The position numbers and the translations under genes were made by a program. This document shows positions 1-684 of a stretch of DNA of 727 bases, piece by piece (position 1 is the first letter of the stretch; the number at the start of each line of letters is the position of its first letter). The notes under the pieces were generated by a model, which was given only the letters and a program-made list of their open reading frames with translations, made no database searches and was not told the DNA's origin. The stretch lies in the NCBI RefSeq assembly GCF_003334405.1, contig NZ_QOWM01000055.1. The stretch is one strand, 5' to 3'. The DNA comes from Escherichia coli. GTDB taxonomy: Bacteria; Pseudomonadota; Gammaproteobacteria; Enterobacterales; Enterobacteriaceae.

Positions 1-684
1 ATCACAACTGATGCGATGGGTTGCCAGAAAGATATTGCAGAGAAGATACAAAAACAGGGAGGTGATTATTTATTCGCTGTAAAAGGAAACCAGGGGCGGC
101 TTAATAAAGCCTTTGAGGAAAAATTTCCGCTGAAAGAATTAAATAATCCAGAGCATGACAGTTACGCAATGAGTGAAAAGAGTCACGGCAGAGAAGAAAT
201 CCGTCTTCATATTGTTTGCGATGTCCCTGATGAACTTATTGATTTCACGTTTGAATGGAAAGGGCTGAAGAAATTATGCGTGGCAGTCTCCTTTCGGTCA
301 ATAATAGCAGAACAAAAGAAAGAGCCAGAAATGACGGTCAGATATTATATCAGTTCTGCTGATTTAACCGCAGAAAAGTTCGCCACAGCAATCCGAAACC
401 ACTGGCACGTGGAGAATAAGCTGCACTGGCGTCTGGACGTGGTAATGAATGAAGACGACTGCAAAATAAGAAGAGGAAACGCCGCAGAATTATTTTCAGG
501 GATACGGCACATCGCTATTAATATTTTAACGAATGATAAGGTATTCAAGGCAGGGTTAAGACGTAAGATGCGAAAAGCAGCCATGGATAGAAACTATCTC
601 GCGTCAGTCCTTGCGGGAGCGGGCTTTCGTAATCTTTCCCTGCTTTTTGTACTAAATAATTCGCATTTTATGTTTAAAAATTGA
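1..684 (+). CDS. ISAs1-family (H-repeat-associated) DDE transposase, C-terminal portion; 5'-partial, start codon upstream of window
   Basis: Seen in sequence: frame 1 is open from base 1 (ITTDA precedes the first ATG at 16) to TGA at 682..684, so the ORF runs off the 5' edge. The ATG at 16 is probably an internal Met, since the conserved 'TTDAMGCQ' block straddles it. Established knowledge, from memory: '[15 protein letters not shown]' (second catalytic Asp, codon 10..12) and '[44 protein letters not shown]' (catalytic Glu, codon 412..414) are characteristic of ISAs1/H-rpt transposases (DDE_Tnp_1-type). Full-length homologues are about 375-380 aa, so roughly 150 N-terminal residues are missing from the window. 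Confidence 0.85.

Follow-up and report, generated by a model that had tools for sequence, protein, structure and literature searches.

The stretch of DNA analyzed here, referred to throughout as the window, comprises 727 nt of Escherichia coli sequence and contains the 3′ two-thirds of ybfL, extending across the junction with ybfD, the copy that follows in tandem. The first nucleotide of the window corresponds to codon 169 of ybfL in phase 0, and the window covers only the 3′ 642 bp of the ybfL element; all the features described below lie on the plus strand. Positions 1–614 encode, in the canonical frame, codons 169–373 (the latter by its first two bases) of a ybfL-type ISEc1/H-rpt transposase, as determined with the ISAs1-family model NF033564 (NCBIfam) and by alignment to ybfL, and include the C-terminal portion of the DDE domain as well as the conserved C-terminal helix. 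NF033564 gives the translated window 201.3 bits (cut-off 70) and covers its residues 1–176, leaving the final ~50 residues beyond the model, and the PF01609 (DDE_Tnp_1) domain is present in proteins near-identical to the window transposase. NF033564 stops about 34 residues short of the real C-terminus (window 529–632, translated residues 177–210), and by under-covering the conserved C-terminal helix it leaves late truncations and frameshifts invisible to the model.

Among complete E. coli genomes, megablast matched the window in 5,343 of 5,426, at a median of five places per genome, and the top match (99.7%) is the ybfL pseudogene that adjoins ybfC and ybfD in the RhsC region. Pairwise alignment to two ybfL loci, from KL53 (L001) and from a K-12-type laboratory strain (L002), reveals exactly two differences. 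The first, a G instead of an A at position 264, affects the third base of a Gly codon and is synonymous. The second is a single 1-nt gap in a G-run, which reads GGG at 615–617 in the window and GGGG in both references. The G at 264 is private to the window: an A is found in the ybfL references and in ydcC (L004), and a T in yhhI, in SCU-301 and in the yafV-linked copies, all of them synonymous GGN codons.

The ISAs1 family, whose members include ISAs1 from Aeromonas salmonicida and IS1358 from Vibrio cholerae, is described in ISfinder as comprising elements of ~1.2–1.5 kb with one ORF and short imperfect inverted repeats beginning with CAGGG. Both the CAGGG-type repeats and the element size of the family are found in the ybfL element, as seen in the right repeat of the window and in the reference copies. 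Like the E. coli K-12 ISEc1/H-rpt elements ybfL, ydcC and yhhI (the last two intact or nearly so), the window has the NF033564 DDE transposase and the CCCTG right end; with K-12 ybfL it also shares the tandem junction with ybfD, and it is 99.7% identical to ybfL loci. Judged by its sequence, the window holds a defective copy of ISEc1/H-rpt that is still a member of the ISAs1 family.

The C-terminus of this transposase is well defined. Reference copies end in ...ASVLAGSGLS-TAA at residue 378: ybfL, yhhI and ydcC all comprise 378 codons and share the same end, coded ...CTT GCG GGG AGC GGG CTT TCG TAA, with tails that all read GCGGGGAGCGGGCTTTCGTAA and include the run GCGGGGAGC, and the annotated end of the ybfL CDS falls at the window equivalent of position 632. 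The same end point is shared by homologues of 372–378 residues in E. albertii, Salmonella, Citrobacter and E. fergusonii, which finish with either ...LAGSGLS or ...LAGCGVS. To reach larger evolutionary distances, a search with YdcC among 1.84 billion cluster representatives was followed by realignment of the 127 full-length matches at 36–54% identity. These representatives have ~370–390 residues and have in common a C-terminal motif, (A/G)(W/M)D..YL..(V/I)L, after which a few variable residues follow. Relative to YdcC residue 378, 126 of the 127 terminate between −4 and +6 (median −2). The window ORF ends at +17, that is, 17 residues past the usual end of ISAs1-family transposases as defined by anonymous cluster representatives. 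The window thus lacks the intact C-terminal end of the family (at about residue 378), its reading frame being shifted at codon 375, and the suspicion of an earlier note on this DNA that the tail might be non-canonical is borne out.

The ORF in question extends from 16 to 684 and closes with a TGA at 682–684. It contains a 15-residue conserved stretch, encoded by 574–618, and then runs on for 21 residues (619–681), much as the earlier note had described in reporting some 20 residues beyond the conserved region. K-12 ybfL ends with SGLS, whereas the window has 21 unrelated residues in place of those four. The cause is visible in the alignment to L001 and L002, in which the G-run at 615–617 carries a 1-nt deletion that constitutes a −1 frameshift point: the reference GCGGGGAGC, with four Gs, is replaced in the window by GCGGGAGC, with three. 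The four-G run makes up codons 373–374, and the G is missing from a run located 13–15 nt upstream of the TAA. As a result, GCG GGG AGC becomes GCG GGA GCG, with G374 kept (as GGA) and all residues from codon 375 on altered. The canonical TAA remains intact at 630–632 but out of frame, as the frame from 603 (...GSGLS*) and the CDS end annotated in L001 (locus position 3133) attest. The proposal that a mutation at the original stop had created the tail therefore came close to the lesion without hitting it, and a stop-codon mutation proper can be rejected.

Three-frame translation of 601–727 resolves the aberrant tail into two parts. The first, AGFRNLSL (619–642), reads the end of the canonical ORF (SGLS-stop) and the right repeat out of frame. 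The second (643–684) consists of 13 residues over 643–681 and the TGA, and reads as coding the leader of the ybfD copy. The ORF of the window, with three Gs, amounts to 395 codons, 17 past the canonical 378. At the base composition of the leader, a stop is expected to be preceded by at least 13 sense codons ~40% of the time (P about 0.4), and since the run-on matches chance, the length of the tail is not exceptional.

The boundary between these two parts is the end of the element. The right terminal inverted repeat (IRR) of ybfL, TTTCGTAATCTTTCCCTG, occupies positions 625–642, as indicated by its match to the left repeat (IRL) and by a drop in conservation. Its reverse complement, CAGGGAAAGATTACGAAA, matches 16 of the 18 positions of the IRL, CAGGGAAAGATCACGTAA. 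The IRL itself is located at L001 1854 and L004 1481, beyond the limits of the window. In single-copy loci, homology among the copies stops at ...TCGTAATCTTGCCCTG, with unrelated flanks from the next base onward, and the reverse complement of this single-copy right end, CAGGGCAAGATTACGAAA, pairs with the left-end CAGGGAAAGATCACGTAA. The element measures 1,291 bp in ydcC (L004 1481–2771) and 1,290 bp in ybfL (L001 1854–3143), each with one ORF of 1,137 nt. The boundary was further sampled with 145 right ends, 62 of them distinct, among the matches listed by scans for the 4-G pattern. In the 62 distinct right-end contexts among those listed matches, conservation is at least 90% through CCCTG and falls to 20–40% at the following base. 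The tip of the element is window position 642.

It follows that the canonical TAA (630–632) lies inside the 18-bp IRR, 10 nt from the tip, and the earlier note was right to propose that the coding region overlaps the terminus of the insertion sequence. This is the normal, compact layout of an insertion sequence and no peculiarity of the window copy. The many distinct flanks of the element imply that it would have been mobile in the past, and no obvious direct repeats were found flanking the ydcC or yhhI copies. Exact ISEc1 right ends were also observed on contigs of metagenome-assembled genomes labelled Collinsella sp. and Candidatus Scatousia excrementigallinarum (L129, L130, L144), which are most likely mis-binned Enterobacteriaceae DNA.

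Beyond the tip, positions 643–727 are the 5′ leader of the ybfD copy. They align to the left leaders of the single-copy yhhI (L003 1501–1585) and ydcC (L004 about 1504–1589), upstream of the start codons, and the ybfD CDS begins at the window equivalent of 763, its ATG lying ~36 nt past the window end. The ybfD copy begins at element position 24, and hence is without a left repeat of its own. In intact elements this leader DNA is AT-rich and non-coding, and in the window G+C content is 23.5% over 643–727 versus 42.7% over 1–642 (0.233 as a fraction over 641–700). The description of this region in the earlier note as AT-rich and of low complexity holds for its composition and only loosely for its complexity, the sequence being AT-rich with no simple repeat. 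Its suggestion of a readthrough into inverted-repeat sequence applies to AGFRNLSL only; for the AT-rich stretch (643–684) it is rejected, because the repeat ends at 642 and 643–727 belongs to the next copy. Simple scans for promoters and terminators in 560–727 returned none, which is still compatible with a weak ybfD promoter, and no structured RNA was detected in the same interval by Rfam match at E up to 1.

Several further observations concern the tandem array. The right repeat of ybfL directly abuts element position 24 of the ybfD copy (window 642/643; L001 3143/3144). In K-12-type loci, a 380-bp partial copy with its own IRL, ybfQ, lies directly upstream of ybfL (L002 1474–1853), and KL53 is without ybfQ. 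An origin of the tandem junction by insertion of ybfL into an older copy was considered and rejected, since excising 1854–3143 from L002 would join position 380 to position 24 and rebuild no element. One E. coli genome (H30, NZ_OZ197100.1 2038812–2038896) matches only 643–727, at 90.6% identity and with no annotated feature, and is apparently a solo H-rpt left-end remnant.

These coordinates outline a simple mechanism. One G is missing from the four-G run, presumably by homopolymer slippage, whether in the cell or at sequencing; the frame shifts by −1 from codon 375, the TAA is bypassed and the ORF continues for 21 codons, of which the first 8 derive from the canonical end and the inverted repeat, and the next 13 from the otherwise untranslated, AT-rich leader of ybfD.

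Other copies carrying the three-G allele bear directly on this mechanism. When complete E. coli genomes were queried with 45 nt spanning the deletion, one exact match was obtained, in SCU-301; the allele resides there in another ISAs1 copy, which is flanked by vgrG and an Rhs gene and labelled 'frameshifted' in RefSeq. Two further proteins, P0118 and P0120, are encoded at a yafV/ivy-linked H-rpt remnant (GCA_014857365.1, GCA_019583375.1) that has GCGGGAGC as well as additional substitutions and indels. All these frameshifted pseudogenes share GCGGGAGC and AGAGFRNLS with the window and differ from it in locus, in downstream DNA and by 7–12 substitutions, two of them having further indels. After AGFRNLS, translation continues as PAAGVHARPP... 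in L005, as TEGMGCTVP... in P0118 (L145) and as RKEWDARYP... in P0120 (L146). AGFRNLS is thus common to the three-G copies, which then diverge with the flank, so that the rest of the tail is whatever lies outside the element. Homologues ending with the same tail at the same position, which the earlier note had considered as a sign of an ordinary C-terminus, were not found: none has the full tail, and the sharers of AGFRNLS are frameshifted copies that diverge past the repeat. The comparison among loci points to the 21-residue tail being, very probably, an accidental by-product of the missing G, with its sequence set by the DNA beyond the element. Somewhat against this interpretation, the three-G allele is seen again in two or more other copy contexts, which may hint at something beyond noise, though the copies concerned are decayed or annotated as frameshifted.

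Related fusions were noted alongside these copies. P0036 is an H-rpt frameshift fusion that runs on in the other frame, and P0120 (L146 2501–3289) is fused to a fragment of an IS256-type (PF00872) transposase. P0085, a homologue of 388 residues that is 80% identical to the query, ends in ...RGAGFRNLALET, in the same alternative frame as the window. The three-G copies share some variants with one another, and all of them have a T at 637, as does ybfL; given these shared variants, the three-G allele may or may not represent a separate event in each copy.

Whether the missing G was lost in the cell or in the record is a separate matter. It is quite possible, if somewhat short of probable, that the deletion is a homopolymer error of sequencing or assembly, in which case the organism would have GGGG and ...SGLS-TAA, and the tail would exist only in the record. 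Consistent with such an error, both differences between the window and ybfL are private, and the exact sequence of the window across 570–690 is absent from the complete E. coli genomes searched, the best matches over that interval (MG1655 included) being 99.2% identical over a span of 122 nt, with the extra G of the four-G form present. An exact 28-mer with three Gs returned 0 matches in metagenome contigs and 0 in a collection of one genome per species, versus at least 120 metagenome contigs and 19 genome stretches for the four-G control 28-mer. SCU-301, moreover, has several genes annotated as 'frameshifted' or with an 'internal stop' in the same 5 kb, as is typical of indel-prone assemblies. 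Against an error, a run of three to four Gs is short for a systematic homopolymer artifact, the same allele appears at the yafV-linked copy in two independent NCBI assemblies, and a pseudogene is free to gather real indels. The three-G allele is rare, but among complete genomes its rarity is bounded, not measured: an alignment of 46 columns with a single gap and one of 45 with a single mismatch come out alike at 97.8% identity, so identity bands cannot separate four Gs from three Gs with one mismatch, and the single exact match in SCU-301 is a lower bound.

Gene conversion offers another route to the same deletion, whereby the three-G allele would have been copied into ybfL through a short tract from another H-rpt copy. 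Opportunity exists, in the form of a median of five related copies per E. coli genome, and the allele is present in other copies, all of which share the T at 637 with ybfL. The locus is prone to recombination between the two neighbours: in an evolved strain, a recombinational deletion of ~1.3 kb is reported to have fused ybfL and ybfD (PMC10044804). Known three-G donors, however, differ from the window at 588 and/or 600, which would restrict the tract to less than ~40–50 nt, nothing points to a three-G donor in the source genome, and donor-specific flanking SNPs appear to be absent. We consider this route improbable.

In a bolder reading, which we regard as highly improbable, the GGGG five codons before the stop would be a recurrent slippage hotspot of H-rpt/ISEc1. 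With the stop located inside the right repeat, such slippage would time and again generate fusions of transposase and flank whose C-termini vary with the context, some of which might perhaps modulate transposition or be co-opted by the host.

Weakest of all is the notion, which we judge barely credible, that the extended tail is a native or functional alternative C-terminus, reached by programmed frameshifting or through a phase-variable G-tract. Contraction of the G-run does recur in more than one copy, and the distant homologue P0085 adopts the same alternative frame; but intact homologues, both near and far, all stop at or near residue 378, the sequence past AGFRNLS is flank-derived and differs in every context, and four Gs are too few to act as an efficient contingency tract. 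Programmed frameshifting of the IS1/IS3 type relies on a slippery heptamer and two conserved overlapping ORFs that yield a fusion product in intact elements, whereas the window change is a genomic 1-nt deletion with no slippery heptamer and no conserved second ORF, and its carriers are pseudogenes. Intact homologues carry a single ORF ending at residue 378, with no conserved ORF downstream. The possibility, raised by the earlier note, that the tail is simply the native C-terminus is rejected on the reference copies, the cross-genus homologues and 126 of the 127 representatives, all of which end at or near residue 378.

The interpretation of the tail as an accidental by-product of the missing G also frames its likely consequence. 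In L001 and L002, the two ybfL reference loci, the gene is interrupted at codon 18 by a stop that precedes the region covered by the window, and it is annotated by RefSeq as a pseudogene. Because ybfL bears this premature stop in the closest relatives, the tail is most likely without function, and we infer that it is neither expressed nor functional. If the source of the window shares the codon-18 stop, which would lie outside the window, the late frameshift changes nothing. In K-12 engineering, the interval between ybfL and ybfD has been used as a neutral integration site (PMC7797564).

For annotation purposes, the ORF at 16–684 does not warrant a protein call with a novel C-terminus; the element should be closed at 642 and 643–727 assigned to the next copy. 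The element is well known. As a general caution, wherever a transposase stop codon lies inside the terminal repeat, any late frameshift yields an ORF that runs into the flank and mimics a 'variant tail'. In biological terms the finding carries little weight, representing a routine frameshift in a decayed copy of an insertion sequence.
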